Shown: piece after piece, positions 26,499-60,169 of the stretch
Position numbering within the stretch: the first letter of the stretch is position 1
Layout: every line of letters starts with the position of its first letter
Virus record (IMG/VR): IMGVR_UViG_3300026549_002532
Location: 1-64,000 of that record
Length of the DNA: 64,000 nucleotides
Reading direction: 5' to 3' (one strand)
Origin: a virus
Taxonomy: Duplodnaviria; Caudoviricetes
The notes under the pieces: generated by a model
What the model was told of the DNA's origin: nothing
Database searches by the model: none
The model's input: the letters and a program-made list of their open reading frames with translations, nothing else
Translations under genes and position numbers: made by a program

Positions 26499-26547
26499 AA
26501 TGGTAGAATTTAGAAATTTATGAATAGTGTTATTAACTCGGTGCTTG

Positions 26548-26826: not shown

Positions 26827-26880
26827 TGATTACGTATATCGCGTATAAGCTTTTTACGGAACTTTATAAAGTGAGGCAGG

Positions 26881-27018: not shown

Positions 27019-27273
27019 TGACGGAAAAACTAATACAGGGCGATAGCAGTAATCAATTATTCACCTAAAAATCGTTATGGCGGCTCCCCACATCGTGCCA
27101 CTTCTGTAGCACCCGAGAGCAGATAAAACAAAGCAAGGAGAAGAACGGTGCCAGCCGTTTCCTCTCCTTACCCTGAAAAAATAGAACTGCCACCGGCAGT
27201 TTCTATAAAACAAAAAGGGTGAGCCATTGCTGACCCACCCACGGCTACGAAAGCCAAAGTTAAAATTTAGCGG

Positions 27274-27699: not shown

Positions 27700-27707
27700 A
27701 GTCGGTA

Positions 27708-28493: not shown

Positions 28494-28535
28494 AATACAA
28501 ACGTTTTTGAAGGTGAAACATCTGTTAATTGTTGG

Positions 28536-28570
28536 CAAAGGTATGGCCCAAAAGTGCGCTCTATCTGCAC
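28536..28570 (-). promoter_or_regulatory. Promoter with palindromic operator A (putative WYL site)
   Basis: GTGCGCTCTATCTGCAC 28554-28570, 10 nt from the -7 box (CAAAGGTA 28536-28543). Confidence 0.7.
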
Positions 28571-28833
28571 AGCAAAAAATATTTTCAAAAAAAAGTGGCA
28601 AGGTCGGTTTATTTCCGTCCCTGCCATGATGCAGATAGAGACCGCAAGGGTTGTTAAATCTTTTTGATTTGTAGTTTGAACAAATCAGTCTTTCTACCGT
28701 TGAAAGTGTAGCCGATGCCAAACGAGAAATTGAAACGGCGTTTCTTTTTCTCGGTTGTAACTTCACTTGATCTGTGCTGCTCGATTACAGCAAAATTTGG
28801 TTGGGCGTTTGTTGGTTCCATGATTCACTATTG

Positions 28834-29547
28834 TTAATCGTTACAATACTTTATTAACATCGCATACATCATTTCATACAATCCTAATGAAATGAGTGTT
28901 GTGGCATCACCATCGTGATCAATTCCTACCGTTGCAGTCCTATCATGTGTCAATACTAAATTTATCATAGTTCCCAAATATGCTGCTTCTGCCGCAACGC
29001 GGTCGAGAGTTTCCCACTCCTCGCCGTCATTATATATTTTTGCCTTGGGATTTGCCCCTAGTTTGAGCAGACGCTCCATTTCTTTTACCTGCAATTTACA
29101 CACAGCGACATATAGGTCAATGTCGAGCTGTGTTGCACCAAACTTCGTGAGTTGAGATTTGTCTTTAATCCAGAACACGTCTTCTATAGATGCGTCTGTT
29201 TCATCGCTATAGATAAAACCTGCACCGCTTTGACCATAGTCAATGTATGGGATTTCGTCGTCGAATGAAAAGTTGCTGAACTTGTCGATGAGGATTTGTT
29301 TGATTTCTTCATTGAGCTTCAGCGTTTCGCGCACTTTTTCCACATAGCCGGATTGCCATCCTTCGGGTTGTTGAATGGCACGCTCTACCGACATGGTGAT
29401 GAAGTGCAACGGAATATACACACTCCATGTGTAAAGTGCCGGCATCGGTTCGCCATCGGGAATGGTGGCAAGCGTTTTCCGCAACCTTTCTGGAGCCGTA
29501 TTAAGCAATGCGAAAGCGATTTCTCGAATTTTATCTTGAAAAATCAT
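28834..29547 (-). CDS. Hypothetical protein (ankyrin-like segment)
   Basis: 237 aa, 'ERLLKLGANPKAK'. Confidence 0.7.
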   Translation of the reverse strand: MIFQDKIREIAFALLNTAPERLRKTLATIPDGEPMPALYTWSVYIPLHFITMSVERAIQQPEGWQSGYVEKVRETLKLNEEIKQILIDKFSNFSFDDEIPYIDYGQSGAGFIYSDETDASIEDVFWIKDKSQLTKFGATQLDIDLYVAVCKLQVKEMERLLKLGANPKAKIYNDGEEWETLDRVAAEAAYLGTMINLVLTHDRTATVGIDHDGDATTLISLGLYEMMYAMLIKYCND

Positions 29548-29564
29548 GAGTTATATTTTTGCCG

Positions 29565-29599
29565 CAAAGATATGGCTCAAAAGTGCGCTCTATCTGCAC
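29565..29599 (-). promoter_or_regulatory. Promoter with palindromic operator B
   Basis: GTGCGCTCTATCTGCAC 29583-29599, 10 nt from CAAAGATA 29565-29572. Confidence 0.7.
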
Positions 29600-29638
29600 A
29601 ACATAGAAAAAATGCACTGTTTAATAAAATTTTCAGCG

Positions 29639-30130
29639 TTAGTACATTGTTTGAGTGTCGCAATCACCTGACGGGGGCAATGGCAAGCCACGACCATCAA
29701 CCATAGTTAGCGGAGTGTAGCCGTCACGAAGTGCGTTTGTGTATTCGGCAAAAGCATAGATGTAATGCCCATTGTGCGCTTGCTCGACTGCGAGTTTGAA
29801 CCATTCGACATATTCGGGATCTCGACCGAGTGCAAATCGGGAGAGTTCCCGATATTCCTCGATGATGCGCAAAGCGTTTTCATGAGGAGTCATGTCGGAA
29901 TAATCCCACGGCAGATTGCAGTTGTGCGTCAATACGGCCAATTCATTATCGGTTGTATCGCAGAACAAACCGCAATCTTTCCAAGAGTTTTGCTTCACGG
30001 TTAGCCAACAGCGATAGCCAGCACCGTTTGGACTGATGTAAGCACAAACACGGAATTTCTCATAGCCTAGTTTATGAAGCTCGGCTACAGTATCGAAATA
30101 TTTGACAAACTGTTTATGATAATCCTCCAT
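29639..30130 (-). CDS. Hypothetical protein
   Basis: Likely start MEDYHKQF; last gene of the defence operon. Confidence 0.65.
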   Translation of the reverse strand: MEDYHKQFVKYFDTVAELHKLGYEKFRVCAYISPNGAGYRCWLTVKQNSWKDCGLFCDTTDNELAVLTHNCNLPWDYSDMTPHENALRIIEEYRELSRFALGRDPEYVEWFKLAVEQAHNGHYIYAFAEYTNALRDGYTPLTMVDGRGLPLPPSGDCDTQTMY

Positions 30131-30135
30131 AGTGT

Positions 30136-30654
30136 TTATGCGATTAGTTGGCATAGGCACGTGGCGAGCAGGACTACCTGCGGTAGTGATGGCAGCGACG
30201 TGTCGGTGCGGTTAGCGAGGTAAGTGTCAACGAGGACTTTGCGAAGCTGTTGGGCGGTAGCCGGCTCTTTCATCAGCTCGAAAAGTTCGTGGTCAATCTC
30301 TGCGCACTTGTAGAAGTTACGCAGGGTGGAGATGGCATAACTACTGGGCGAGTTGCCCGGAACACGGGGAACGAGCCGCCAGAACGGCTCACCGCTCATG
30401 TGGTAGTACGGCATCCCGATATTGGGCTTGAAGTGAGCGATGTGACGCGTGTAGCGCAAATCGTTCAACTTGAAAGCCGTGAGCAGAGCCTCGCTCAGCT
30501 CAATCTGAGGCGAGCGAATGATGCCGCACTCCACCAGGTCGATGACTGCCAACAGCAGCAGCGGCTTGTGCGGTGCCAGCTGCCCACCTTTCTTGTTCAC
30601 CGAAAGGTGGTCAAAGCACTGCAGATAATATGCCAAACCCTTATCGCCCATCAT
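30136..30654 (-). CDS. SBD/McrA-N-like modified-DNA-binding domain without a nuclease domain
   Basis: 'APHKPLLLLAVIDL...PYYHMSGEPFWRL' resembles the N-terminal domain of phosphorothioate-dependent HNH endonucleases; ATGA overlap with the helicase stop. Confidence 0.6.
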   Translation of the reverse strand: MMGDKGLAYYLQCFDHLSVNKKGGQLAPHKPLLLLAVIDLVECGIIRSPQIELSEALLTAFKLNDLRYTRHIAHFKPNIGMPYYHMSGEPFWRLVPRVPGNSPSSYAISTLRNFYKCAEIDHELFELMKEPATAQQLRKVLVDTYLANRTDTSLPSLPQVVLLATCLCQLIA

Positions 30655-33600
30655 TCAACGTCCTCAATCGCGACATCATACTTGATGTCCTCGGTACGGG
30701 TCAATTCGATGTTATCAGCGGTAGATGTATCATCGTTGGTGAAAAATCGGTTGTTTTGACCGATTTTCCAACCGTTCAAGAAACCGCCATCGGGGTAGAT
30801 TGAAAGTTTCTTTCCTGCAAAAGAAATCGTCAACTCGCGCCAATGCGTGAGCGTGCGACGCTCTTGCGACACGATGGGTTGAAGTGTGCCCTCGTACCTG
30901 TCGCCATGCTTGTCGTTGAAGTCTTCAAGCCAGCGCTCTGCAATATCTTTGAGATATTGGTCACGCAGATAGCTACCGGCAAGTGCGGCTTGAATACTTG
31001 GTTTCATATTCGGCTCGTCGTACTTCTCAATCTTGAATGAGAGTGAGAAGTCTTTGCCGATTAGTTTGACAAAGTGTTCCACAGTCTGCAGGGCAAGTAC
31101 GATGGCAAGCACGCTTTTGAGGTGTTCGTCCTGATAGAACACTTCAATCTTTCCCTTGTGCTGCTTGCAGTGTGCGAGGAACTGCTCAACAATCCCCTGG
31201 GCATTCTCTTGAATGATTGCGCCCAAAGTCTTTGAGTTGATATTGCGTGAGCGGTTTCCGCTAAGTCTGAAAATCTTGGTGGTCGGTTTCGGTGACGTGT
31301 CAACCGAAACGGCATTGATGGCCGGATTTTCAACCTGTGCGCAATACATCGTTTCGTTAGCCCATTTGTCGTTGAGTGAAGCAAATTCGGCATTGTTGGT
31401 CACATAGAGCAGACCATCAATGTAAGCGATAGGATAAACGCCCTTTGCCGCAAAAGGATTGTCGAATATCTTCACATCTTTTGTCCAGCCCTTGATGGCT
31501 TGCACCATCTGGATGATGGGCACATTCATGGGCGCATGGCCCTCGGCAGCGATGCAGAATGTGGGTTCAAGCCCTCGACCGGCGAAGTTGTTGAGGTGCT
31601 GGCCACGCCAACTGTTTTCAGCATCGCTGTAGTTCCATGTCGAGAAGTCATTGGTGACAAACAATGTCGGTGCGGTGCTTGCCTTTCTGAAAGCACGCTC
31701 CAGCTCTTGAATCGACAATTCATGAGCGTTGGGCAGCAGCGCGGCGATTTCTTTAGGCAGATTTTCAGCCGATTCTTCTTCCTCCTGAATCCACGCAAGC
31801 GCCAAATCAATGTCGATATATTTCATAAATCGCAAAGTGAACTTGTCAAGGATTACATCCTTTGTGTTGCGCTGCTTGGCTTCAAGCAACATTCGCTTTG
31901 CGATTTTCACGACTGCGTTCATGATAACCACGCTCGACAACTGATTGGCATAACCCGCGCCGCCGGGGTTGGTGTCGAACACGCAGAGGTGGCCGTTGGG
32001 CATGATGGCGAAGTCCACCGCTCCGCGCTCTTTGCCGAGGTGTTCGACAAGTGCTTGGGTAAACACCACGCCCAGCGTGAACAACAAGTTGGTTTCGGCA
32101 TCACGCTCCGAGATCCAACTGTTGCTTCCCTTGTGGCGCAAACGGATTTCGGCAAAATCGGTTTGGATTAGTCCACCAATGATGACGTTTCTTCTGATTA
32201 AAGATGGGTCATAAGAGCCGTGGCATGGTCTGCGCTGCCCCACATCTTTTCCGCTGATGACGTAGTGGAAACGAGGCTTGTCCGGGTCGCGTGGGAAGAC
32301 GGGATTCATGTCATGCGGCAGTTTCAGCGGATTCTCGCGGTCAGCGACTTCCGTCTCTATCACCGCACGACCGCATCGCTGGCAGTAGCAATAGCCGAAG
32401 CCCTGTCCCTCGTTGTAGTAGAGAATCTTGGCATAGCCCGTGTCGCGGTTGCTTCTCACCGAGAACAAGTGCGGGTCTTTCGGGCCCGAAGTCCAGTCAT
32501 CGGTGTCGATGAGCTGTGCGCTGACATGGGTATAGACATTGTTGTCAAGGATGCGCGTCTTGTCCTCATTGATGTCGGGCATGAAAGCCGCAGGCTGAAT
32601 GAGCGTCAATGCCTTATCGTCATTCACCGGCCAGTTTATCATGTGGTCGAGTGCGTTGGCATCATCAATGACGGTCTTGTTTCGGTTATGATAGATTTGC
32701 ATGAATACCCTCGCGTCCTGGTACTGGCTTGACGTTTGCACGCCACGCACGGTGTAAACGACACCATCAACGACTACCGCATTGCCGGGCGCATATTGTG
32801 CGATGGCCTCGCGCAGCGAGTAGGTCGGATTAGATGAGCTTGAACTGTTCACGTAGTCACGTTTGCCGCTGGGGTCAAGGTCAAGCGACAGCACGTTGAC
32901 CGGCATATTGGCATTCGGCGAGAAGCGATGCGTTGCCCAATAGGTAATCAAGCGAGCGTTCAACTCGTCGAAATATTGCCATTTTAACTTGTTGCGGAAT
33001 CTTGTGTTGGTCGCCGTGCGCAGAGCCACCGCATAGTCTTCGAGTTTGAGACTCAACTCGGAGTAGCAACGGCGGTTGTGCTCTGCCGCTTTTTGCACCA
33101 CATAGTTCAACTGCCCCTCAAAGATGGTGCCATCGAGCAATGCGGTCAACCCGCTGCGTAAGTCTCCGCTCAACGGCTCGGAGCATTTGCGATTGAACAA
33201 TTCATACATTGTGCCCTCGGGTTCTCCCAGCATCTGGTCGGGGCTAACGGTAGCATTGTTTTGGTCAACGATTTCTTTGAAGCCACTTGGGGTGGCCTCG
33301 ATGCGGAATGGCGTGAAGTAGTCCACTACCTTTTGGTTGAGACTACCGCCATGTGCGCCCTCGGTGAAAACTCCAAAGGCACGCACGAGGAATGAGTTGA
33401 CGTGACGCTGCACCACTTGCGGACTTTTCAGATCGACCGACGGCACTTCGACGGGTCGGCTGATAATAGTCGGGATAGGATTATACAATGTGCGCAGACC
33501 GATAGCGTCAGAGCCGCACAAGGTGATGCACACGCTGCGCACTTTGTTGTTACGTCCGCTTCGTCCGGCACGCTGCTTGTAGTTCGACGGCATGGGTGGC

Positions 33601-36600
33601 ACCGAACTCAACATCACCACTTCAAGATTGCCCAGGTCAACACCCATTTCCATCGTTGTCGAGCAAGCGAGAATGTTAATCAAGTGCTTCTTGAAGTCAA
33701 GCTGCATTTTTCTCGCAATCGCCTTATCGACTTGGGCGGTATGCTCTGCCTGAATGAACAGTTTGGGAATAAGGTGGATTGAATACAGGCGGTCGGCAAA
33801 CACGCCGTCGTTTCCCCACAGGTTGTGCTCATAGAGCAGCTTGCGATTTTCTTTTGCCCACGCTTCGAGTTTTTCGGGCGTGGGTTCACCGCTTGCCGAG
33901 CCATGATAATATGGATATGGCGCCCAGTGTTCATGCAAATTCTCGTCAAGGTCAACCGGGATGCCACCCGAAAGATAGGGCGAGAAGTGTTTGAAGTTAT
34001 TCTCGATGGGACGCAGGCTGAATGTGTGACGGTCGGCACTGTCGCTGGTCGTGTCACACAGATACACGTTCTCATAGAGCTTGAAACTGATGTTGGTGAG
34101 ATTCATACGAAGCACATCACCGCGCTCGGGAACGTGCCTTGCGTCGTCCTCATCGTAGTTCGTGGCCGTTTCCAGAATCTTGTTCTCGGGCACTTGAACG
34201 GTCTCCCACAGGGCATCGACCACATTGCTGATGCTGTCGAAATATTCGTTATAGGCATCGTTCAATGTCATGGTGTTGTCGTCGCGCACAATGAGCTGGC
34301 ACAAGTAGCGTGCCACACGCGACTGCGTGAGTTTGCCCTCCTCCATCACAGGCTTGCGGGCCGGACGGCGACGCGGCCTCTCGGTGGCGAAACGCTGGCA
34401 CTTGAAGATGTCGATGGGGTCGGTGTCGTTGATGCGCAGGAAGAACGACTGGTTACTCCTGATGTTGTAGTCAATGAACACTTGAATGAGATTGCGCCAA
34501 TCTTCGAGGGTGATGGTGTTCGCCTCATTCTCCATGAGTTCATTGAACTGCTCCACGGCTTTCGGCAGTTCCTTGATGTTCATGAGCTGCGGGTAGCAGG
34601 TCTGGAACAAGCCCATCGTCTCGAACGATGCCGCCGAGGTGAGGTGCTTTGCCAAGTACATCATCATGATGCTTTGCACATATCGCCTGACGATGATGTC
34701 GGGGATTGTGCCGTCGTCGTTCAGCTCGTCGCTGTCGCTCGACCGTTTGATGAATTGCGAGCAGAATGTTGTGCAATGGCGGTCGTTTTTCAGCAGTTCG
34801 GCAATCTCCATCCACGAGATGCTGTCTTTGAGCTTTGCCCTTTCTTTCTTGCGCTGCTGGAACAATGCCTCATATTCATCGGATTCATCGTCATATTGAC
34901 GCATTTTCTTCGTCAACTCGTCCACAATCTTCTTCTGTTTCTCGGCCTCGGCTTTGCGGCGGCACAATTCGGTGTAGATGGTGCTGTATAGCCACATCCT
35001 TTCTTGCTCAAGGTTTTGCTTGAGCGTGGCTTTGGCGGCTGCCTGACGGCTATCGACAAAGCTGATGAATTGCTGTCCGTCATGTAACATAATCGAGCCA
35101 TCGGTGGGCGGCTCGGCTTTGTCGAGCTGGTCAAGCACCGATGGAGCGAGCAGACGGCTGATGAAGTCGGCCGACAAGCGGAACTTCATCATTCGGGTGT
35201 CTTCCAGATTGCCCGAAGCGTCGTTCTCCATGTCTTTCTCGTTGGTGCGTGCGCGCGACTGCTTGCTGTTGCAATAGGGGCAACGGCACTGGGTGTTGCC
35301 CACCACGTGCCACTCTCCGGGCTTGATTTCTCCGGGCTGCACTTGGATGAGTTGGTCGCCATCGACCTTGAACTTCACATTGTTATCGCCATGGTTGTTT
35401 GCCTGGTTCGACAATGCGAAGATAATGTATTTCAAGTCACCGTCCTCATCGTCGGGGTCGGGCAAGTCGAACATATCGCTGTCATCGGTAGCGACTGACT
35501 TGTATTTCCAGTCGTTGGTGTCAACCATGCCCACTGCCACATATTCGCCGCAATTCTTGCAGCGGCTCAACTCCAGCAGCGGCACTTCGTTGCCGTCGTT
35601 GGGTGTTTGCGTATAGATGCGGAACGAGCCGTCGGCGTGCTCGGTCAAGCGCACAAACAAGCCATTGTTGGGCACGCGGTAGAAATAATGCACTTTGAGC
35701 TTCATGTCGGGCACAGGTTGTCCTGCGGCACGATAGCGCACTTCCTCTCGCTCGCACATTTCATCGACGAGCCGAAGCTGTGTTTCAACATCTGTGGTCT
35801 CGGGGAACAACTCATTCAGCGGAACAAAATCTTTGGCGAAGATGGTTTTCCAGCGTTGCTCGTCTTCGCCATGCGGAATGTTGTCCTCGCCCACGCGCTT
35901 GCCGCCTATCACCTCAACTTGCTTGGTGCTCAGTCCTGTTATGCCGGCGATGAATTTGCGCAGTTTCTTGGTTTCTTCTTTGGCTTTCTCCGGGTCGTCG
36001 GTGTTGCCGAAAGTTGCCGATGAAGTGGCAAAGCGCACATCGGCGGCGTCCACATTGAAAGCCAGCAACACACGGCGCAGCAGCAATGCCAACTCGGCGG
36101 CGCCCGCACCGGTGTAGGTGTGGGTCTCGTCGATGGCCACCCAGCGCAGACTTTGCTGCTTGGGGTCGATGAGCGCCGCGTCGGTGCCACGAAGCAGGAT
36201 GTATTCGAGCATCGTTGGGTTAGTGAGCAGGATGTCGGGCGGTGTCTGCCGCACCTGTCTGCGGGTATAGAGCATTTTGCCGAAACGGTATTTCGTCTCG
36301 CCGGTCGCCTCGTCAACATATTCGCCACGCAGCTGCTTGATGCGTGCGCGAAGTCGGTTGGCCTCGGTTGAATTGTCATCGGCTTTCGGCTCGTTCTCGG
36401 GAAGGTCGCCATTATACACCGTGTAGGTGAGATTGGTGCCTTCGAGCAGTTGTTCCAGTCGCTCTTTCTGGTCTTCCATGAGCGCGTTGAGCGGATAGAG
36501 GAAGATGGCCTTGATGGTGCGGCTTTGCACCACATCACCAGCTCCTTGTTGCAGCAGGTCATAGACCAACGGCAACATGAAGCACTCGGTCTTACCCGAA

Positions 36601-36977: not shown

Positions 36978-36995
36978 ATATCGTAGTTTATGTGG

Positions 36996-40231: not shown

Positions 40232-40241
40232 GATAATTAAT

Positions 40242-41480: not shown

Positions 41481-41487
41481 CGTCTTT

Positions 41488-42453: not shown

Positions 42454-42457
42454 AGAT

Positions 42458-43237
42458 TCATATTTTATTCATGTCTATACTAATGCCTGCATTTTTCATC
42501 TCTTTTGCAAGTTGAAATTTCCATGAGTCATTTTTATCTATTGAGACATATAAAACACCTGAAAGATCACTGGGAATTTCAACACCATCTTGCACAAGTG
42601 CGCAAACTCTGTTGCGACCTAATCTTGCATAAAGATACCCATGCTCAAAAATCACATTTTGGCGTGCACGAGGCTTCAATGTTGCATTATCTTCATTGAC
42701 AGAACCTCTATCGCAATTAGTGTATATTACAACTCCAAAATCAGCATCTGACAATTCTTCAAATTTCTCAATTATGGTTTTACCAGAATTAGGTTGCTCT
42801 TTTAGAATTATAGGTTCGCACTCCAACTTTTCAAGAAAACGTGCAACTTTCTCAATATACTCTTCATTGTGTCCATGAACAATGAAGACTTTTGTTGTTC
42901 CAGTTGAGTTTTTTATAGGGGAACTTTTAACTTCCACGGAATCAACAATTTTATTTAACGCATTTAATATGCCTAAAATTTCTTGAATAATTTGAGGACG
43001 ATAGCAGTATTTTTCAAACCTTACAAATAGGTCTCTAACTTCTTGCTCATAAGAACCTACCTTGATACAAGATAAATAAAGATTAACAAGTCCTTTCCAA
43101 TCTGCATAAGCCTTGCTATCTTTCAAAGTATAAGCCGTGTATGTTCTAATGACACCTCTTTGTGGAGGAACAAAAGAAATACCTTCACGAATTTCATCAC
43201 CTGTACGAATAAGTTCGTCTAATGTAATATTACTCAT
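42458..43237 (-). CDS. TIR-like domain protein (CAP12/PycTIR family)
   Basis: 'KVFIVHGH', 'GKTIIEKFE', 'RARQNVIFEHG', 'IPSDLSGV'. Confidence 0.85.
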   Translation of the reverse strand: MSNITLDELIRTGDEIREGISFVPPQRGVIRTYTAYTLKDSKAYADWKGLVNLYLSCIKVGSYEQEVRDLFVRFEKYCYRPQIIQEILGILNALNKIVDSVEVKSSPIKNSTGTTKVFIVHGHNEEYIEKVARFLEKLECEPIILKEQPNSGKTIIEKFEELSDADFGVVIYTNCDRGSVNEDNATLKPRARQNVIFEHGYLYARLGRNRVCALVQDGVEIPSDLSGVLYVSIDKNDSWKFQLAKEMKNAGISIDMNKI

Positions 43238-45750
43238 TTATTCCATTGATTGAATGTGGGATTCGATAAACTCTTGCTCAAACATATCAAGGCCATACTT
43301 CAAATAGAGCTGGCGGTCGATGTCTGATATTGACCGTGACCAGTCTATATCAGAGTTGTCTGTGAAGTCCTGAATTGGAACATATGCCCATACAGCTGGT
43401 GGGGTATGTTGCGTGATTTTTAAGGTACCCACTAGGCATCTTAAAAATTTAGTTCTTAGATATTTCGCGCAATTAATCGCCTCTTTTTCTGTGTCAAAAG
43501 CACCAATACTAATAAATGTTGATGTGGCAGAATCCCCTGGCTTACCAATTTCAGACTTGCCAATTATTCGTGCTGGCACTGGATTGCCTACAGTTCCAGC
43601 GGCTCCGTCTGCCTCAGAAATAAAGACTTTATGTTTTTCTATATTGTTGTTTTTAGGATAACGAGGAGATAAGTATTTTCTAAAAACATATTTCCAAACA
43701 CGATTAGAGCCAACAAGACCTAAAATGCGATAAAAATCACTTTCATTATCAACAATATCATGAAATACGTATGGCAGGGCTTCAATCGTTGATGTTTTAA
43801 GCTCGTATTCCTCGTTCGGACCTAATTCAGTTACGGCAGGGCGTTTAGATTGAATGTATCTTAAGCGATCCATTGCGCTGTTCGGAAAATCAGTCAAAAA
43901 AATGTCATTAAATTTTAAATCAGATCTTCCTCCAAACACTAATGATTTAAGACTCTCCGAATCTTTGAGATCAAATTTTGAAGCAATTCCTCTTAGAGTA
44001 TCATTTGGGAGAAATTTTTTTATAGGGGAGTATTGAGCATTTGCATTGCGCAAAATGATTACAATACCGCCATTAATACTCACACTTGGGAAACAAACGC
44101 TTGAGTCTTGAGAAAAAAATGCAACTCTAAGATGAGGATCGTTTAACATTTTTTGATTCCATATTGCAGGTGTAAGACCTGCATTAAATAAGAATCTAGC
44201 TGGCGAAATCAGAGTATATAAATCGCACAATGCTTCAGCCAAATTATAGAAATAATGATAAACTGGAGCTTGGCGATTATTTACATTATTAGTTTCTTGA
44301 TATGGTGGGTTGCCCACTACAGCATCAAAATTTATCATAGCTTTACTTGTTGTGCCATTCCAATATCCGAGAGACTTAATTGCTGCTACAAGACCGTCTT
44401 TGTCTGTTTTGGCACGTTCAATTAGTTTATCTGCTTTAATATTTAGTTTTTTGTCAGGTTCACGGAAGCCCATAAGGGTGCGACGTGTGATGCTCGCCGC
44501 CATCGGGGTGTTGCAAATCACGTAGATGTTTTTGCCCACCACGTCGTCCCACGCGGCTTGCTCCTCGCCAACCGAGAGGTTGTCGATGGGGTTGTCAAGC
44601 AAGCCCACCTCCTCGTAATACTTCAACAGGCGGCGGTACATCGTGTAGGTGACATAGAGCGGATAAAGCCCCGTCTTGGAATTAATCTCCAGCACACGCG
44701 AGGCGATGCCTTCGCCCTCGGCAATCTTGTGGAACACGTTCTCGGTCACGTCGCCGTGGTCCACAAAGCGAGGCTCGGTGGTGTCGATAAACTCGACCAC
44801 GTTGCCGTCCTCGTCGAGCACGGCTCGCTGGTTGTCGCCGTCGAACTTCTCGTTGAAGAAACAGTAGCCGCCCAATGTGTCGCTCATGTGCATATTCACC
44901 ACGCGCCACGGGGTGAGCACCGTCTCCTTGTCGGGATTGTGGAAGGTAGAGAATATCCAGGCGATGCGCTTGATGCGGTCGTCGATGTGCATCGAGTCGG
45001 CCTCACGGGCAAGGGCACGGATGCGCTTGCCGGCAGCGGTGAACACCGCCGGATTGTAGCACTTCTTGAACTGGTTGAACTTTTGCTTGGTCACGCCACG
45101 GGGCATGAACTCTTCCCATGAGGCGGGATCGACCAGCGATGTGAAGTTGTCGATGGTGATGCCGGTGTCCTCGTCGTCGAGCTTGGCACCGTAGATGAGC
45201 AGCGGTATGCGCAGCGAGATGCCGCGCAAGATGGTGATGCGCTTGTCGCGCTCGTCGCGTTTTTTCTTCTTCTCGGCACGCTCACGCTCCAGCTCGGCAC
45301 GTTCCTCGGGCGTAAGATCTGCTTCAGCTTCCTTGCCTTTCTTGCGAGCCTCACGCATCTTCTGGCGGATTTCGGCACGCTTTTCTTCCAATTTCTTGCG
45401 TTGCTCAGGGGTGAGGTTGTCAATATCCAGGGCCGAAGCCTTTTTGGGCTTTTCCATGTTGGTAGTCTTGGCAATCTCAGCTCCCAGCTCATTCAGCTCT
45501 TTCAACTCGTCGCCGGCGATGTCGAGCAATGCGTCCACATCGTAGAGGCTGGTGTCGTTGAAGCCGTTGCGCACCACGCGGTCAACATAGACCTGCTGCA
45601 AGCGACCGAACAGTTCTTCGGCATCATAATCCACCATCTTGCCACCTTTCAGCGAGATGACGTTGCAATATTGCAGGAACTCATCCATGTTGAGGATGTC
45701 CTGCTGCCTGTCGGTGGTGGTGGCGCTGCGCTTCTCCTTTTGGGTGAGAG
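43238..45750 (-). CDS. Eco57I-type N6-adenine methyltransferase/TRD half of a frameshifted helicase-MTase fusion
   Basis: 'VLEINSKTGLYP' (motif I) and 'FDAVVGNPPYQ' (motif IV); joins the helicase ORF via a frameshift near 45750. Confidence 0.8.
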
Positions 45751-47204
45751 GCGAATTTTGCGGTCTCGGCGATGGCATTGAGGGTGCGCTCAGGCGCGAA
45801 GTCGAAGACGTAGCACTCGGTCTTCATCTTGCCCTCGCTGTTGATGTAGGGCGACTGCACACGGAAGATGGTCTGCATATAAGTGGCCGCCGAAGTGGTG
45901 TCGCTGCCTTTCATGTAGAAGACGGCAGTCCACGGTTTCACGGTCACGCCGGTAGTCAGGCGACCGCAGGAGATGGTGATGGTGCTGGTGGCTTCGGGGC
46001 GGTCGCCGATGGCACTAAGCACCGCGTCGAGGGCGTTGGAGCGTGTCTCGTCGTCATCACCGTCACCAGCCACATTCTTGATGGTGAAACGCTTGAAAAT
46101 GCGGTGCTTTTCGAGCAACGCTTTCATGGCCTTGGCCTCTTTAACGCCCGGCACGACCCACAGGGTGTGACGGAAGCTACGACGGAAGGCATCAGTTGAA
46201 TAAGGATAGTTGTTGCTATCGTCTTTTGTGCAAAGCAAGTCAAGGAACGAAAGTACATCGTCCTCATGTACGAAACGGCCTACATGTTCGGGCGAAGGAA
46301 GATCTGCGAGGTCTGCTTTCTTGTTGCCCGTCCACACACGGAAAAACTCACTAAACTTGAACGTCTGACCCTCCTCAACATAGCCGCTGACGAGCTTACC
46401 GAGGTCATAGGTGTATATGTTCATACGCGGCAGTTCAGCGTAGGGGTTGGGTTCGCCCGGGTACTTCTTGTCCCACTCGCGTTTGGCTCGCTGTTCCTTG
46501 GTGTAGTCCCAAGTGTAGATTTCGCTGTCCTCGAAGTCCTCGTAGAGGTTGAACGGCGTGCCCGAGAGGTGGAGCAACTTGGTGCGCTCTTTGGTGAGCC
46601 ATTGGTCAATCACTCGCTTGCCAAGCGCGGTGCGCGTGCCCTCGTGCGCCTCGTCCACCACAACCAGGTCCCAGTTGGTTTTGAGGATGTCCTGTTTCAA
46701 CTGCTCATCGTTGTCGCCGCCAACGAGCGTGGAACGGCGCAGGTACTGCATCGACACGAAGAACACCAGGCGGCATTTGCCGTCGGTCACACGGCGATTG
46801 AGGCTGTAGAAGTCGCCGCTCGACTCATCATCGGTGCGTGTGGCATAGCGATAGTCGGTGCCATCGAAGATTTTCTTGAAATCCTCGTGCCAGCCCTTAT
46901 CCACCACGGGGCGGTGGGTGACGATGAGCGTGCGCTTCACGCCCATGCGCCGTGCCAGTTCAAGGGCGCACAGTGTCTTGCCGAAGCGCATCTTGGCGTT
47001 CCACAAGAACTGGCGGAACTTGTCGAGCGGAGTGTAGGTGCGGTCTTCACTTCGGCCTGTGCTGGTGCAGAACTGCCTCAACGCTTTAGTGATGGCCTCA
47101 ACCTGCTCGGGTCGAAACTCGATGGCTTCAACGGTCTCGTCGCCAAACAAGCTGTCGCTCTTGGGTTTGCCTTGATATTGTCCAAACGTTTGATATGTTT
47201 CCAT
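45681..47204 (-). CDS. ResIII-type SF2 helicase, N-terminal half of the fusion
   Basis: 'NAKMRFGKT', 'VVDEAH', 'LSGTP', 'QTIFRVQ'; ends in nonsense-like residues after the frameshift. Confidence 0.8.
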   Translation of the reverse strand: METYQTFGQYQGKPKSDSLFGDETVEAIEFRPEQVEAITKALRQFCTSTGRSEDRTYTPLDKFRQFLWNAKMRFGKTLCALELARRMGVKRTLIVTHRPVVDKGWHEDFKKIFDGTDYRYATRTDDESSGDFYSLNRRVTDGKCRLVFFVSMQYLRRSTLVGGDNDEQLKQDILKTNWDLVVVDEAHEGTRTALGKRVIDQWLTKERTKLLHLSGTPFNLYEDFEDSEIYTWDYTKEQRAKREWDKKYPGEPNPYAELPRMNIYTYDLGKLVSGYVEEGQTFKFSEFFRVWTGNKKADLADLPSPEHVGRFVHEDDVLSFLDLLCTKDDSNNYPYSTDAFRRSFRHTLWVVPGVKEAKAMKALLEKHRIFKRFTIKNVAGDGDDDETRSNALDAVLSAIGDRPEATSTITISCGRLTTGVTVKPWTAVFYMKGSDTTSAATYMQTIFRVQSPYINSEGKMKTECYVFDFAPERTLNAIAETAKFASHPKGEAQRHHHRQAAGHPQHG

Positions 47205-47215
47205 ACTTCCGTTTA

Positions 47216-48313
47216 TTATTTGTTTACCTTTTTACTTTTATTCTCGTTGATCACGTCGAGGAATTTCTGCTGACGTGTTCCTTTGTCCTTGAAACTTTGG
47301 TTGGTCAGATTGTCACGATGCAGGTCAATCTTTCCGATAAAGTCCTTGATGCGGCACAGCCGCTCACGGGGCTTGATGTTCTCGGGTTTCAGGGCTTCGA
47401 GGACATCTTCGTCGGGGAACAGGCTTGCCGACTGCTCGGCCTTGATTTTCTTAATCTCAGCATCGGTCTTTTCGGTCGGGTCGTAGCCCGGCAAGCCGTA
47501 TTTCAAGCCGTCCATCTGCCACAAGTTCCACGAAATGATATAGGCCGCGCCTTTCATTTCGCCCTCGCCAAGCAGCGTGTCGAACTTGTCGAAGTAAAAC
47601 TCCATAAAGGTGACAAACAACGCCTCGCGAGCGAGGAGCAGGTTGTCGCCTTGCCACTCGAAGCCGTAGGTGGCACGCAGGGCAATCTTTGCCCACAGCA
47701 GCCACTCGGCAGAGGTGGTGGTGTTCTGCCCCACAACAATAAGCTTGCGGTCGAGCAAGCCGATGCGGTGGCGCAGGTTGCGGATGGGTTCACCGCTCAC
47801 GGTGTCGTAGCGGCTCACGAGGTACGGGGCTTCACCGCAGGTGATTTCAATACGGCGTGCGGCGACGTAATCTTTCCACGTCTTGCCCTCGGTGTCGGGG
47901 AACACGATGTCGCCCTCGGTTTCAATCCACTCATGGGGATTGTCGGGGTCAGGGCGGTTGAACACGTCGGGGCGCCCGAACCACGCCTCATCGACGAGGT
48001 TGTTCTGTGCGTTGCACACCCACGATGGGGTGAACACCTCGGCCTTGTCCTTGACGCGCCGCGTCTGTTCTTCGAGCGACTTGCGGGCGCGAGGGCGCAC
48101 AATTTCGCCATTGTCGCCAGTGACTGCCTCAATGGTGATGGGGTCGGAAAAACCATAACCGGCTCCTCGCTCGGCGTAGGAGTCGGTTGCCCAATAGATG
48201 TTCTCTTGGGTGGTATGGTCTTTGAGAAGCCGCTGAAAACTTTCGGGATAGTTTTCGGCTAACCAGTTCTCTCGGATGTCAACAGGTATGTCTAATGGTT
48301 TCTTTTTCGCCAT
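47216..48313 (-). CDS. R-M associated methyltransferase-like protein (SAM-binding half)
   Basis: 'AEVFTPSWV', 'EITCGEAPY', 'YGFEWQGDNL'; no NPPY motif. Confidence 0.7.
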   Translation of the reverse strand: MAKKKPLDIPVDIRENWLAENYPESFQRLLKDHTTQENIYWATDSYAERGAGYGFSDPITIEAVTGDNGEIVRPRARKSLEEQTRRVKDKAEVFTPSWVCNAQNNLVDEAWFGRPDVFNRPDPDNPHEWIETEGDIVFPDTEGKTWKDYVAARRIEITCGEAPYLVSRYDTVSGEPIRNLRHRIGLLDRKLIVVGQNTTTSAEWLLWAKIALRATYGFEWQGDNLLLAREALFVTFMEFYFDKFDTLLGEGEMKGAAYIISWNLWQMDGLKYGLPGYDPTEKTDAEIKKIKAEQSASLFPDEDVLEALKPENIKPRERLCRIKDFIGKIDLHRDNLTNQSFKDKGTRQQKFLDVINENKSKKVNK

Positions 48314-48324
48314 ATTTTATATTG

Positions 48325-49323
48325 TTATCTCATGCCTAAGCGTTCCATTTCGAACACCATTCCAAAGATGTACATTGCTTGCATGAACTCCAGAGTTTCA
48401 TCACTATGATAGAAATTGTTTTTGTCAATTTTATCCTCAGAGTGTAATAATGCTAATGCTTGGAACTGCGCATTCAATTTTTTAGCGGCCTCGGTGTCAT
48501 AGCCAATTCCAATTATGTCAAGCACATATTCGTCCATGGCATAAACTCCACGAGGCTCAAGTAGAGTTTGAGGTATGCCCTTTTTTTGCAAGCTATCCCA
48601 GTCAATATGCCAATGATATACTGCTCCAATACCTGCATAGATAGGCCACAGGTACCATACTAAAGGGAATAATGCGTCTTTATGGGTTTTTCCACGTTCC
48701 AATAGTTCTTGCCTTAATGCTAAACAAGTGCGTTTCTTTTCGACCATTATCTCTGGAATATGGGGCATTTTCTCGTTAGGCTCGAGAATTCCCATTCTTC
48801 TTGCTTCAGAGATAATGTTCATAGCCATTGCTATATCATTGTCGCGACGTTTGATTTTGCCAGATTCTTGAGCTTCGCGAACAGATTGTCTCAACACTTC
48901 TGCCTCTTTGCTATCTCCCACATTATTCTTGAAGATGTCGCAGAATTGAAATGCCTCTTCAAAATGCCCCATATTTTTGTATGAGGCGATAACGCCTCTA
49001 ATGGCATTAGCATAGTTGTTGTCCAGCTGATATGCCATAAGAAAGGCTTTGTTTGCCTCGATATGGTTGCCTTGTTGCCCATATATAGAAGCCATATTGA
49101 CCCAAGACTCTTTGTAGTCTGGGGCGATTGAAAGTGATTCGTTGAAGAGGGCTATTGCATCATCAAGCTGTCCAATTTGCAATGCACTAACTGCCAATGT
49201 GTGGCACCAAATTGGGCAGGATTTATCACATTCTTGTGGGCATGAGTCTCCTGGGCAATCTATTTGTCCATCAGAGTCACGCCAACAAACGCCTTTTTTC
49301 TTTAAGAAATCAAATAATCCCAT
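48325..49323 (-). CDS. Tetratricopeptide repeat protein
   Basis: TPR-like helices 'AIALFNESLSIAPDY..SWVN.ASIY...G...EA...F..AYQLD'; AT-rich. Confidence 0.7.
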   Translation of the reverse strand: MGLFDFLKKKGVCWRDSDGQIDCPGDSCPQECDKSCPIWCHTLAVSALQIGQLDDAIALFNESLSIAPDYKESWVNMASIYGQQGNHIEANKAFLMAYQLDNNYANAIRGVIASYKNMGHFEEAFQFCDIFKNNVGDSKEAEVLRQSVREAQESGKIKRRDNDIAMAMNIISEARRMGILEPNEKMPHIPEIMVEKKRTCLALRQELLERGKTHKDALFPLVWYLWPIYAGIGAVYHWHIDWDSLQKKGIPQTLLEPRGVYAMDEYVLDIIGIGYDTEAAKKLNAQFQALALLHSEDKIDKNNFYHSDETLEFMQAMYIFGMVFEMERLGMR

Positions 49324-49332
49324 AATTCCAGT

Positions 49333-50361
49333 TTATTTATCGGTGCTTTCTGCTTGCACTGGTGTGTATATTTCATAGAGCTTTTTCACTTTCTCAGCAA
49401 TTTGGGTTCGATAGTCTTCGGGAGCGATGACTTCGAGGTCGGGGCCGAAGGAGAGAATCTGCTGCTCCAGCTCCAGGTTGGGGCGCACCTCGATGGAGAA
49501 GATGCACTGCTTACGGTCAACCACCTTTTGCGACGGGTGTAGCGGCTTGCTCTCCAAGTAGGGATAGCGCATAGGATTGGCGCGGAGCATGATGGACTGC
49601 GCCGTTTTGTGCCGATGAACGGTGACGCCCACCACATCGTCGAAATGGTGGTCAAAGTCTATCTCGGTGTTGATGTAGTATTCCACACCGGGCATCGGCT
49701 CAAGGCTCACGATGCGGTCGAGGGCGAGGTTGGTAATCTCGCCGGTGGCATCGTTGCGCCCAAAGGCGAACCAGCGGTTGTTGTACTGCTTCAGGTAATA
49801 AGGATGGACGACAAACTCAATGTCACGGCCACCGTTCTTATAGGTGTGATAGCTGATTTTGAGCACTTTGTGGGCGGTGACGGCATCAATAATCTGCCCT
49901 AAGTATTCCAGCCCTTTGAGTAAGGGGTTCTGCTCAAAGCACACCACACCGGCACTCTTGCCGTCGAGGTTGAAGCGGCATTCGAGGTTGGTAATCACCT
50001 CCTCGATCCATTCATATTGCGACAAGCCGCGGAAACGGGTCAGCATGATGACAACTTGCTGCAGCTGCTGCGCCTCGGCCTGGCTCAGCGGTTGCTGATT
50101 GATGCTGAAGCTCGGGTCGGCATAGCGGTAGTAAACCCGCTTGCCGTCGCGGTGCTTCTCTAGTTCGATTCCATAGCTGTCTTCCATGAAATTGATGTCG
50201 TCGAAAATTTGCCTGCGACTCACACCGCCCTTGATGTTGTAGTCAATAAGGGCTTGCTCGCACGCACTGATGAGGTCGTCGATATAGAAGCGTCGATGGG
50301 TGTTGCGGAAACATGCATCGAGCGTGCGGTAACGAATATTTGCGTTCTTATTTATCGGCAT
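49333..50361 (-). CDS. WYL-domain transcriptional regulator
   Basis: N-terminal HTH 'RRQIFDDINFM', WYL 'HPYYLKQYNNRWF...LALDRI', WCX C-terminus. Confidence 0.92.
   Translation of the reverse strand: MPINKNANIRYRTLDACFRNTHRRFYIDDLISACEQALIDYNIKGGVSRRQIFDDINFMEDSYGIELEKHRDGKRVYYRYADPSFSINQQPLSQAEAQQLQQVVIMLTRFRGLSQYEWIEEVITNLECRFNLDGKSAGVVCFEQNPLLKGLEYLGQIIDAVTAHKVLKISYHTYKNGGRDIEFVVHPYYLKQYNNRWFAFGRNDATGEITNLALDRIVSLEPMPGVEYYINTEIDFDHHFDDVVGVTVHRHKTAQSIMLRANPMRYPYLESKPLHPSQKVVDRKQCIFSIEVRPNLELEQQILSFGPDLEVIAPEDYRTQIAEKVKKLYEIYTPVQAESTDK
49343..49359. promoter_or_regulatory. Operator-like palindrome inside the WYL 3' end
   Basis: GTGC-TTTCTGCTT-GCAC, same GTGC-N9-GCAC geometry as sites A-D. 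Confidence 0.4.
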
Positions 50362-50553
50362 ATTGTTCTTGCTACTTTTTTCGCAGGCTCAATAAGATTG
50401 AAAATCTTATTGTAACAACCTACAAAGTTACTAAATTATATTTTATATAAAGTGTGGTTATTTCGAAAATGTGGAAAACTTGCACGAAAAATCGCCGAAA
50501 GCCGCATTTTCAAAGCTATTTGAGCCCGTTTTCAGCGATTTTTTGAGCGAAAA

Positions 50554-51333
50554 TCACTTCAACTCGTCGCCCCACATGAAGTATGCAATCCACCTTTCGG
50601 CTCCGTCGGGATTGAGCAACGAGAAAAACAAGGCGGGATTCTGGTCTTCGCCGCCGTCAGTGAAGTATTTCGCTTCGGTCTCGGGTTTGAGACGGAACTT
50701 GCGCAGCTCACTGCCGCTGAAGAAAGTGATGGTCTCAATCGGCTTGAGGTCGTATTTCCCGGGTTGGCATAACTCGTCGCCAAGCATGCCAATCTCCACG
50801 GCAAGCGACTGGTTGGGCTGCAAGTTCGCCAAGTGTGATTGAGTGAGTGGCACGTTTACATTAGTGCCCTCAACGGTGAGGCTGGCCAGCTCCACCTTGT
50901 GGGCGGGCGGCAGGTTGTTCTCGTCAATGTCGTAGTCCCAGAGCCACAGTTTGCCTTTCACATCTGTTATCGGCTCGTCGAAAATGTGTGCATCGGTCAG
51001 GTGCCAGTAGTAGAGCTTATCATCATTGCTCTCACCGGCAGCCCAGATGCTGCGGGCGTTGTCCTTATCGATGCGCTCCACGGTGACGTAGCCGATGATG
51101 GCGTTGCCCGGCATATCGGGGAAGTCGGGCAGGTTGCCGAAAATCTGTTCGTTGAATATTTCCTGCACCCACTCGATGGGTTCGTTATTCATCATGCGCT
51201 CAGAGGTTTTCTTACTGGTGTGAATGAGGATGCGGCCCGGCAGTCGCTTGGGTTGCCAAGTGCGGTTTTCAACGTCTTTGATACCAGCAACGATTAACGA
51301 AGCCCACGGTTGCTGAACTGATAAAACTTTCAT
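50554..51333 (-). CDS. ASCH domain protein
   Basis: 'MKVLSVQQPWASLIVAGIKDVENRTW'. Confidence 0.85.
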   Translation of the reverse strand: MKVLSVQQPWASLIVAGIKDVENRTWQPKRLPGRILIHTSKKTSERMMNNEPIEWVQEIFNEQIFGNLPDFPDMPGNAIIGYVTVERIDKDNARSIWAAGESNDDKLYYWHLTDAHIFDEPITDVKGKLWLWDYDIDENNLPPAHKVELASLTVEGTNVNVPLTQSHLANLQPNQSLAVEIGMLGDELCQPGKYDLKPIETITFFSGSELRKFRLKPETEAKYFTDGGEDQNPALFFSLLNPDGAERWIAYFMWGDELK

Positions 51334-51376
51334 ATTTGAAGCAGTTTTTTGAGGGGAATAATCCATTTAACTGCCG

Positions 51377-51411
51377 CAAAGGAAAAACCTAACTGTGCGC
51401 TCTATCTGCAC
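51377..51411 (-). promoter_or_regulatory. Promoter with palindromic operator C
   Basis: GTGCGCTCTATCTGCAC 51395-51411, 10 nt from CAAAGGAA 51377-51384. Confidence 0.7.
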
Positions 51412-51481
51412 AGCAAAAACTTTTTTTCAAGAAAAGCACAAAAAAAACACTCAAAGAGCGATTTCTGTGCAGCCAATATAT

Positions 51482-51682
51482 AAAAAAGCGCAAACTGCGC
51501 ATTATACAAATTGAAGGTCTTAGGACAAACCTAGCAGTCGATAATGATAGCAGTTCACGCCTATGCGGCGAGAACCACTATACTTCCGTGACTGCTTAAA
51601 ATTGAAAGTGTCCTAAGTTCTCAATTTGTCAGGAGTATAATGTTCCCTTGTTTCCTCGATGTCTGTCAAACTTGACGTTTGA
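51482..51682 (-). ncRNA. Candidate structured small RNA
   Basis: -7 box TAATTTTG (51688-51695), nested stems CTTAGGAC/GTCCTAAG and AGCAGTC/GACTGCT, terminator GCGCA-AAC-TGCGC followed by T6. Confidence 0.4.
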
Positions 51683-51734
51683 CGCTGCAAAATTAGGAAA
51701 ATTTTTCTAATTGGCAGGTGATTACGAGGAAATT

Positions 51735-52475
51735 TCAACTGTTGAGCGGATAGTTGCACGTAAGCAACAGTTTCGCTCTGGGTGCTTTGCCCGACTTGTT
51801 AAACACGCTCGGGTAGAGAACCAGCTCGTCATCGTTGGGGCGTTGCTCCCAAAGAATGTCGCAGCCTTTGTTCCAGAGGAAAGACTTCGACTGCTGGCCG
51901 CAAATGACGGTGAACCGCTCAAAGTCTCTGAGAAGTCCGTCATTTTCGAGCGCACAACCAGCGAGCGTGCCGGTAAGCTCGAAGGTGATGTTGCCTCCTC
52001 GCGATGCGAAGCGATAGAACTTTTCATTCACTGGAATGACAAGTTCTTCGTCGTGGCGGAAAGCATAGGGCAGTTTGGCATGAAACACATGACTGGGGAT
52101 GTCATCCGCGTCATACGGACTGCGAAGCTCCTTGCCCAGTGGTGTGTCAAACTCATGAGCTTTGGTCAGCAAGACTGAAGGCTCATGGACGGCAGCCCAC
52201 TGGCTCTCGGTGCCATCGGCTTTGGCCAGCACATCGACGAAGCCGACACACTTGCCGGTAGGCAGGTCGGCGGTCGGCGGCAGGTTGCCGAACAGTTGAT
52301 GGTTGTTGACTGCCTGGAACCATTCCAAAGGAACGTCAGACATCAAGAAACATGGGAGCGCATAGATGTAAAGGCGGCATCCCTTTGAGAAATGGTCGCC
52401 GAAGATCGCATTTCTCAAGCCTCGTACAAGCATTGTAGCGAAAGGCTGCTGAATGAAAAGATTTCTTGTTTCCAT
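51735..52475 (-). CDS. Divergent ASCH-like paralog
   Basis: 'NLFIQQPFATMLVRG', 'PLEWFQAVNNHQLFGNLP' parallel the 50554 protein. Confidence 0.65.
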   Translation of the reverse strand: METRNLFIQQPFATMLVRGLRNAIFGDHFSKGCRLYIYALPCFLMSDVPLEWFQAVNNHQLFGNLPPTADLPTGKCVGFVDVLAKADGTESQWAAVHEPSVLLTKAHEFDTPLGKELRSPYDADDIPSHVFHAKLPYAFRHDEELVIPVNEKFYRFASRGGNITFELTGTLAGCALENDGLLRDFERFTVICGQQSKSFLWNKGCDILWEQRPNDDELVLYPSVFNKSGKAPRAKLLLTCNYPLNS

Positions 52476-52534
52476 TACAGTTTTTTAGTTGGTTTAACTT
52501 TCCCCCTCTTTAGTTTGGGGGCTAACCAAAACTG

Positions 52535-52569
52535 CAAAAGTGGGCATAAACAGTGCAGCCTATCTGCAC
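52535..52569 (-). promoter_or_regulatory. Promoter with palindromic operator D
   Basis: GTGCAG-CCTAT-CTGCAC 52553-52569 (perfect inverted repeat), 10 nt from CAAAAGTG 52535-52542. Confidence 0.7.
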
Positions 52570-60149: not shown

Positions 60150-60169
60150 AATCGTACTGATTTTTGCCA

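Follow-up and report, generated by a model that had tools for sequence, protein, structure and literature searches.

A 17-bp palindrome in fixed register with the -7 box is the predicted operator of a prophage WYL regulator and of its relatives in Bacteroidales defence islands

Which protein reads a 17-bp palindrome that stands before four promoters of one prophage, and what does it couple? We addressed this question in a DNA stretch of 64,000 nucleotides (nt), hereafter the window, which is the first 64 kb of the 76.7-kb IMG/VR record IMGVR_UViG_3300026549_002532, a record classed as a provirus. A sequence-only reading of the window had proposed that a WYL-type regulator encoded among these promoters co-regulates all four of them and that they may form an undescribed module of their own. 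We consider it probable that the palindrome is the operator of the window's own winged helix-turn-helix (wHTH)-WYL-WCX regulator. Its binding is predicted from comparative evidence, i.e., the promoters of homologous WYL genes, the co-variation of operator and regulator on a tree, the restriction of the motif to WYL islands, its co-occurrence with WYL genes in a sample of 301 genomes, and metagenome loci; this comparison supports the proposed co-regulation of the four promoters. The idea of a stand-alone module was not upheld. The window instead appears to hold one instance of a family-wide regulon, since the operators of its relatives head known defence systems.

The four operator sites (A to D; Table 1) lie on the minus strand and read GTGCAGATAG(AGC/GCT)GCAC. 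Three of them share one and the same 17-mer, from which the fourth deviates at 3 positions; site D is the perfect 6-N5-6 palindrome, GTGCAG-N5-CTGCAC, that had been pointed out before. Exactly 10 nt separate each site from a -7 box (TACCTTTG, TATCTTTG, TTCCTTTG or CACTTTTG). The Bacteroidetes -7 element is TAnnTTTG, as Bayley et al. reportedly described in 2000. The bare pattern GTGC-N9-GCAC occurred five times in the window, at exactly the coordinates first read. The chance expectation is 1.7 matches per window and 5/100 shuffles reached five; therefore, the match count alone is a weak signal. A 47-nt weight matrix was derived from 108 metagenome sites that are independent of the window and unrelated to it, and the window was scored with this matrix. 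The four sites scored 35.5-48.9 bits, the next best window position scored -6.2 and the maximum over 20 shuffles was 3.9. That is, the matrix separated the four sites from every other position, indicating that the window holds exactly four of them, with coordinates and 10-nt spacing as first described.

Cassettes A and B (28536-28575 and 29565-29604) were near-identical over ~45 nt, and their spacers agreed at 9 of 10 positions. Because the identity includes the spacer, the whole operator-promoter module was recently duplicated within the prophage. The spacers of sites C and D differed from those of A and B. The half-site that had been reported at 28630 was also recovered. Here, ~60 nt upstream of site A, 11 nt of the operator core recur in inverted orientation, and 0.02 such occurrences are expected per window. 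Together with its flanks, this inverted copy matched the operator at 13 of 17 positions, and its -7-like box was poor; judging from its sequence, it would be the remnant of a cassette that has flipped or else an auxiliary half-site.

The gene that had been read as a WYL regulator indeed encodes one, a protein of 342 amino acids (aa). Pfam recognized the WYL domain (PF13280; E = 7.6e-12, 45.5 bits versus a cut-off of 21.8) and the C-terminal WCX domain (PF25583; E = 7.2e-11, 42.7 bits versus a cut-off of 23.9). Residues 1-140 had no Pfam match and no PDB match by sequence, and a single-sequence PDB search with the protein gave no match. The AlphaFold2 model had a predicted local distance difference test (pLDDT) score of 81, and its residues 5-80 formed three helices and a two-stranded wing, i.e., the N-terminal wHTH of the superfamily as far as the model shows it. 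Over ~350 alignment columns (gaps included), Foldseek matched the model to DriD (8tp8, 7e-14) and PafBC (9fnd, 7e-13), followed by BrxR (7qfz, 3e-8) and CapW (7tb6, 6e-8).

If the palindrome belongs to the WYL protein, related WYL genes should be accompanied by it. The motif scan at orthologues that the sequence-only reading had suggested was carried out. Using the window protein and its 49%-identical orthologue from a sister prophage (G022) as queries, we found 64 homologous Bacteroidales loci (loci and genomes are given below by our L and G handles). The own-promoter search covered 66 related WYL genes, allowed spacers of 8-12 nt and found 55 promoters. In 54/55 of these, a 6-N5-6 palindrome, RYGMAR-AWAGR-YTKCRY, stood exactly 10 nt before TAnnTTTG, and the spacer sequences varied. 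Most of the homologues were ~30% identical and kept the same operator architecture. The own-promoter operators took the forms GCGAAA-ATAGA-TTTCGC, GCGCAA-ATAGA-TTGCGC, GCGAAG-ATACG-TTTCGC and ACGAAC-N5-GTTCGT. On a tree of 63 proteins (quick IQ-TREE run, supports from the Shimodaira-Hasegawa-like approximate likelihood ratio test, SH-aLRT), the operator class (GTGCA, GCGAAA, GCGCAA, GCGAAG-ATACG or ACGAAC) tracked the WYL clades. The GTGCA-type clade, with 100% SH-aLRT support, comprised the window, L130, L131, L194, G022 and a Saprospiraceae protein (L132).

The operator was also repeated within the islands, where 1-4 further same-strand copies headed the next operons. The genes behind these copies encoded YhcG nuclease, AAA_15 ATPases, type I restriction-modification (R-M) systems, Pif1 helicase and a fusion of a reverse transcriptase with a kinase domain of the conflict type. 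The sister prophage retained site D and had three more sites, though its WYL protein is only 49% identical to that of the window. Separately, genome G043 contained a gene for a 203-aa protein (L199:6026-6637, minus strand) that matched the N-terminal domain of the WYL family alone (37% over 134 aa). This gene had an operator-promoter of its own (GCGCAAAAAGACTGCAT, 10 nt, TAACTTTG) besides a second, divergent site; by sequence, its product may be a truncated, DNA-binding-only WYL relative.

Specificity was assessed genome-wide. In five host genomes (2.5-3.8 Mb), 10/10 exact GCGAAA-type matches lay inside the WYL island and a reversed control pattern gave 0 matches. A looser pattern in five more genomes gave island clusters and scattered matches, and those of the scattered matches that were fetched were intragenic and without promoter context. 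One of these five genomes, G042, carried a second paralogue, 66% identical to the window's WYL protein and preceded by a 67%-identical homologue of the window's ASCH270, the gene behind site C. On contig 9 of this genome, GTGCAGATAGACTGCAC, 10 nt and TATATTTG preceded the ASCH270 homologue, which is the arrangement seen at site C, and another site followed 19 kb further on the same contig. Among 301 genomes drawn evenly across Bacteroidales, the strict operator-plus-box pattern gave 32 sites in 21 genomes, and the reversed control gave 5 matches. A full-length WYL protein of the family was encoded in 15 of the 21 module-positive genomes and in 47 of the 280 that gave no match to the pattern (odds ratio 12.4, p = 2.3e-7). 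Of the 32 sites, 21, spread over 12 genomes, lay 19 to 7217 nt from the WYL gene. The motif is thus not equally common regardless of WYL genes; it is island-restricted and enriched where the regulator is found.

Metagenomes were scanned for GTGCARAWAG-N3-GCAC followed by 10 nt and TNNNTTTG, and at least 120 loci, mostly short, matched. Nearly all of the 120 matches listed stood in promoters, 20-60 nt ahead of a gene start. A clade-I WYL homologue (29-68% identical to that of the window) was present in 40 of the 120 loci listed and, among these matches, in 24/57 loci of at least 8 kb. Among the matches listed, the module stood directly before the WYL start codon in 4 loci, and the first genes behind the sites included HsdM (13 loci), BrxA (3), Pif1 (3), a methylase-HATPase fusion and a 1229-aa Schlafen/AlbA_2 protein. 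The most frequent first gene among the matches listed (15 loci) encoded an acidic Cys/Asp-rich protein of ~80 aa that begins MGLFDFLF and had no family match (L230:4787-5059, L214, L217, L249, L252 and L283 are examples). The 332-aa TPR protein encoded directly after the WYL gene in the window (48325-49323) also begins MGLFDFL and contains a Cys-rich stretch.

Several observations weigh against the WYL protein as the reader of the palindrome. First, the window gene's nearest promoter has no operator, and most relatives have one. Second, L131, the closest genomic homologue (69% identical), had no site within 10 kb. Third, ~47 of the 62 WYL-positive genomes in the order-level sample had no strict-pattern match, a comparison that is one-sided because the sensitivity of the pattern is limited. 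Fourth, the counts on the metagenome loci are biased towards the motif because these loci were chosen by the motif itself; the genome searches, unlike them, are free of this bias. Finally, for the window's prophage, the motif frequency is that within the 76.7-kb record.

The rival that survives best, although we regard it as unlikely, is that the palindrome is bound by a different DNA-binding protein, to whose sites the WYL gene only lies close. The XRE repressor, the HTH_17 protein and the AlbA_2/HATPase_c_4 protein, which all exist in the record, or a host factor would be the candidates. The missing operator at the nearest WYL promoter fits this rival, as does one WYL subclade in which an XRE gene of 66-73 aa lies directly upstream of WYL. 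However, this small XRE gene was absent from the record, from G022 and from the genomic loci L130-L200, and it had no BLAST match to the prophage's XRE. The prophage repressor region contained 0 GTGC-N9-GCAC matches, the motif accompanied WYL into chromosomal islands without a phage backbone, and the operator class followed the WYL tree; no regulator other than WYL was common to the loci carrying this operator family. The published Bacteroidetes LexA-like boxes, GGA-N5-TCC and CTAA-N5-TTAG, also differ from the palindrome (PMC8565304), and a LexA-like SOS box was rejected on the same mismatch. In the XRE-subclade loci (L250, L277, L220, L309, L303, L268 and L213), the promoter of the XRE-WYL operon had no operator, and a divergent operator-promoter pointing away was found ~420-450 nt from the WYL start.

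A slightly less likely rival is that the 17-mer has no dedicated binder and is inherited baggage of a portable promoter cassette copied together with its cargo. The ~45 nt shared by A and B, spacer included, are of the kind that such copying leaves, and downstream sites in other islands share long flanks. Against this, the palindrome and its spacing stayed fixed where flanks and the 10-nt spacer diverged (A/B versus C versus D, and across families), both half-sites changed together between WYL clades, and the palindrome was kept even where it overlaps WYL codons.

We think it very improbable that the motif is a widespread phage palindrome unrelated to WYL: a 14-base core scan of viral contigs did find its core, as TTCTGTGCAG-N5-CTGCACAGAA, in ~90-kb gut phage contigs (>119 loci, many from few redundant phage families, and no WYL gene in ~30 tested records), but there it was not in 10-nt register to a -7 box, only 5 viral loci were left once the box was required, and chance matches are expected because 14 fixed bases were searched in redundant contigs. 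In its own right, TTCTGTGCAG-N5-CTGCACAGAA is a perfect palindrome with 10-bp arms that lies in an intergenic gap, surrounded by small genes of early type, in gut phages of ~90 kb that have direct terminal repeats (L010, L037, L054, L082 and ~40 other IMG/VR loci). An RNA hairpin was rejected as well, because each of the four sites precedes its -7 box and is not transcribed from its own promoter. We therefore return to the WYL protein as the predicted binder.

Table 1. Features of the window and of the record beyond it (window coordinates unless marked otherwise).
Feature	Coordinates	Strand	Details
Operator site A	28554..28570	-	10-nt spacer; -7 box TACCTTTG at 28536-28543; 41.0 bits; heads p261 and p141
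Operator site B	29583..29599	-	10-nt spacer; -7 box TATCTTTG at 29565-29572; 43.3 bits; heads p237
Operator site C, GTGCAGATAGAGCGCAC	51395..51411	-	10-nt spacer; -7 box TTCCTTTG at 51377-51384; 48.9 bits; heads ASCH270
Operator site D, GTGCAGATAGGCTGCAC	52553..52569	-	10-nt spacer; -7 box CACTTTTG at 52535-52542; 35.5 bits; heads p246
Inverted 11-nt operator-core copy, TGCAGATAGAG	28630-28640	+	upstream of site A
Fifth match, putative decayed operator, GTGCAAGCAGAAAGCAC	49343..49359	-	last WYL codons, V-Q-A-E-S-T
WYL regulator (wHTH-WYL-WCX)	49333..50361	-	342 aa; Pfam, AlphaFold2 and Foldseek
Nearest promoter of the WYL gene, TAACTTTG	50423-50430	-	within the 192-nt gap before the start codon
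10-bp leader stem, CAATAAGATT-TTC-AATCTTATTG	50390-50412	-	downstream of the nearest WYL promoter
ASCH270, ASCH-domain gene	50554..51366	-	target of site C; Pfam ASCH 5.6e-7
p246, ASCH-like paralogue	51735..52475	-	target of site D; 33% identical to ASCH270 over 144 aa
p237	28834..29547	-	target of site B; no family match
Target unit of site A	27274..28493	-	p261 lipoprotein at 27708-28493 and p141 at 27274-27699; terminator at 27217-27240
Tail tape-measure gene	5313-9473		window
Large terminase	52665-54296		window
Clp-type head protease	59064-60197		window
AlbA_2/HATPase_c_4 protein	60258-61673		
HTH_17 protein, integrase and XRE repressor	record 65.9-68.4 kb		beyond the window
XRE-type repressor	record 66576-66998		beyond the window

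As had been reported, the fifth GTGC-N9-GCAC match overlaps the final codons of the WYL gene. Its position is real; it does not qualify as a functional operator-promoter, since 7 nt lead from GTGCAAGCAGAAAGCAC to the TAA stop, ACTGGAAT follows and no -7 box is present. In relatives, the same place looked different. The frames of clade-I WYL genes often end V-Q-K-D-C-T-x-x-x-stop, where GTG CAG AAA GAC TGC AC is the operator, and 10 nt after this coding operator the TAA stop starts the -7 box, e.g., TAACTTTG or TAAATTTG. An operator-like match within 45 nt of the stop codon was found in 25/41 distinct clade-I 3' ends, and a -7-type box followed 10 nt later in 24 of these 25, the exception being the window. 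Examples are L236, L250, L262, L271, L194 and L125; cases not selected by the motif include L194, G022 and, from the order-level sample, G100, G104, G136 and G227. Because relatives keep the operator, the 10 nt and the box at this place and the window does not, the fifth match is best read as a homologous but decayed operator-promoter. In the window, the WYL gene and the next gene form one unit with a 9-nt gap. The sequences thus suggest that in many clade-I members the WYL coding sequence contains a putative binding site of the regulator itself.

The control of the WYL gene in the window would differ from that in most relatives. As its nearest promoter has no operator, any self-control would have to go through site C, 1 kb upstream. 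No terminator-like site was detected from ASCH270 to the WYL gene, and terminators were detected ahead of site C and beyond p141. Transcription from site C may accordingly reach the WYL gene as well, together with the ~20-kb operon that follows it. Downstream of the nearest promoter, the 10-bp stem (Table 1) was retained in G022 despite change on both arms (GATA/TATC; L125:12330-12385), and L130, L131 and L236 had stems of different sequence at the same place. The element looks like a 5' leader hairpin, not a protein site, and could possibly affect the stability or translation of the WYL mRNA. An Rfam search of 26-54 kb gave no match.

We propose the following mechanism. A WYL dimer would bind the two GTGCAG-like half-sites, which are 5 bp apart, and the operator, 10 nt before the -7 box, would cover the place of the Bacteroidetes -33 element. 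One sensor would couple four otherwise unrelated cargo units, namely p246, ASCH270, p237 and the lipoprotein pair, and transcription from site C would probably continue from ASCH270 into the WYL gene and the 20-kb defence operon. The WYL domain may sense single-stranded DNA (ssDNA) arising from phage infection, prophage induction or DNA damage. We infer this ligand from DriD, PafBC and CapW, for which ssDNA has been reported (PMC9186387, PMC11804915, PMC11662680).

Concerning the direction of control, we lean towards activation, i.e., a DriD/PafBC-like replacement of the missing -33 contact, because the operator covers the -33 position at a rigid spacing and because the two best fold matches, DriD and PafBC, are activators. 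The spacing was invariant across lineages with diverged spacers, and the operator centre (A-R-A-W-A-G) sits where the -33 TTTG would be. Repression that is relieved by the signal, as in BrxR and CapW, is possible and distinctly less probable. It is favoured by the -7 boxes, which are near consensus, so that the promoters might fire without an activator, by the 5-bp spacer that BrxR boxes have as well, and by the fact that BrxR and CapW, the two defence-linked WYL regulators tested so far, are repressors (PMC9122601, PMC11662680). Mixed or other modes take the remainder. A broader proposal, which we regard as well possible and somewhat short of probable, is that the WYL family is an ssDNA-triggered DriD/PafBC-like activator adapted to Bacteroidetes -33/-7 promoters, which would replace the absent -33 contact at a portable operator-promoter cassette. 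Were this so, acquiring the cassette would bring any gene into an infection- or damage-induced regulon, whether it belongs to a defence system, is a prophage moron or, as in the window, encodes an ASCH protein or a lipoprotein. In many members, the cassette of the next gene would be written in the last codons of the regulator, with the stop codon starting the -7 box.

The genes behind the four sites are largely without assigned families. ASCH270 likely starts at 51333. Its homologues, 67% and 59% identical, lie directly upstream of WYL homologues that are 66% and 68% identical (L194 and L236); by this comparison, ASCH270 is the conserved upstream partner of the window's WYL subclade. The paralogue p246 has a 79%-identical orthologue in G022. 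Pfam, PHROGs and PADLOC assigned no family to p237, p261, p141 or p246. The protein atlas gave leads only, i.e., an immunoglobulin-like/Big_2 lipoprotein for p261 and weak ankyrin-repeat matches for p237. Among viral-contig relatives, p246 occurred only in the sister prophage, and p237 and p261 had none.

These units belong to a 25-kb cargo region, on the minus strand throughout, that is bounded by the terminase gene and by a block shared with the sister prophage (~27.2 kb downwards). The gene order is p246, ASCH270, the WYL regulator, the TPR protein, a type II methyltransferase, a ResIII helicase, an Eco57I-type methylase, a CAP12/Pycsar-type TIR protein, DUF4268, ApeA-HEPN, HNH, DruH and DruE of Druantia III, two small genes, p237 and the lipoprotein p261 with p141. 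The genes of this defence island downstream of WYL include the type II methyltransferase, the Eco57I-type methylase, the TIR protein, ApeA and DruH/DruE of Druantia III. The sister prophage (G022, 26091-30737) lacked the units behind sites A and B (window 27200-30100) and had DUF2130 and an 804-aa protein in that slot. Its island behind WYL contained a type I R-M system and a 1230-aa DEAD helicase with its own operator. Judging from this comparison, the cargo region is one with swappable slots at both ends.

The switching of defence islands is still poorly understood; for Bacteroidales, the dominant order of gut and rumen, the papers searched gave no account of it. If the predicted operator is correct, one WYL design controls whole islands of anti-phage genes in gut and rumen Bacteroidales, and prophage cargo is under the same control circuit as chromosomal islands. 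A short cassette would then mark every gene under the WYL sensor of an island, providing a cheap finder of infection- or damage-induced genes. The candidates would include the two ASCH-like proteins, p237, the surface lipoprotein and, elsewhere, the acidic Cys-rich protein of ~80 aa. In addition, the rigid spacing would offer a direct test of transcription activation by WYL regulators in combination with the sigma factor of Bacteroidetes, which is unusual. Inverted-repeat boxes of a WYL regulator are known from a defence island already, namely those of BrxR, of which pEFER has two. In the searched papers on WYL regulators, Bacteroides, defence islands and promoters, we found no description of this Bacteroidales family, of the fixed-register cassette or of multi-promoter islands, and one passing mention of a WYL gene.

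Finally, we compared the window regulator with known WYL systems. BrxR (Escherichia fergusonii pEFER and Acinetobacter; 7qfz, 7t8k), a repressor of bacteriophage exclusion (BREX) and defence islands, has the same wHTH-WYL-WCX fold class. In its boxes, 5 bp separate the arms of an inverted repeat, and the pEFER defence island holds two such boxes (PMC9122601); the palindrome described here has the same 5-bp spacing. As with BrxR, the window's WYL gene heads defence genes and operators lie in the island promoters, and the operators of relatives stand directly before BrxA, type I R-M and other defence genes. In contrast, sequence similarity to BrxR in the profile search was confined to the WYL part (7qfz, E = 4e-4; 7t8k, 0.018), full-length significant similarity was found in neither the single-sequence nor the profile PDB search, and the N-terminal domain is not recognized by Pfam. 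The arms are 6-8 bp, the palindrome extending to 8 bp in the metagenome consensus, whereas those of BrxR are 10-11 bp. The site here lies upstream of the core promoter at a fixed distance, whereas the pEFER box lies downstream of the -10 element; up to 4-5 sites occur per island, and the nearest promoter of the window regulator has none.

CapW (7tb5, 7tb6, 9c5g), the repressor associated with the cyclic oligonucleotide-based anti-phage signalling system (CBASS), regulates an immune operon and senses ssDNA (PMC11662680). It belongs to the same fold class as the window protein; however, it controls one divergent operon from one site, and its sequence-profile match was weak (E = 2e-3). The best full-length structural matches were the ssDNA-activated activators DriD (Caulobacter; 8tp8, 9pfq) and PafBC (mycobacteria; 9fnd). 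The target sites of these activators extend over the -35 position, their distance from the -10 element is identical in every promoter that they regulate, and these promoters have no -35 element (PMC13004042). A fixed distance was likewise found here, 10 nt at 4/4 window sites and in 54/55 promoters of homologous WYL genes. The regulons of DriD and PafBC consist of chromosomal DNA-damage genes, whereas the predicted regulon here is mobile defence cargo under promoters of the Bacteroidetes type (-33/-7), with -7 boxes near consensus.

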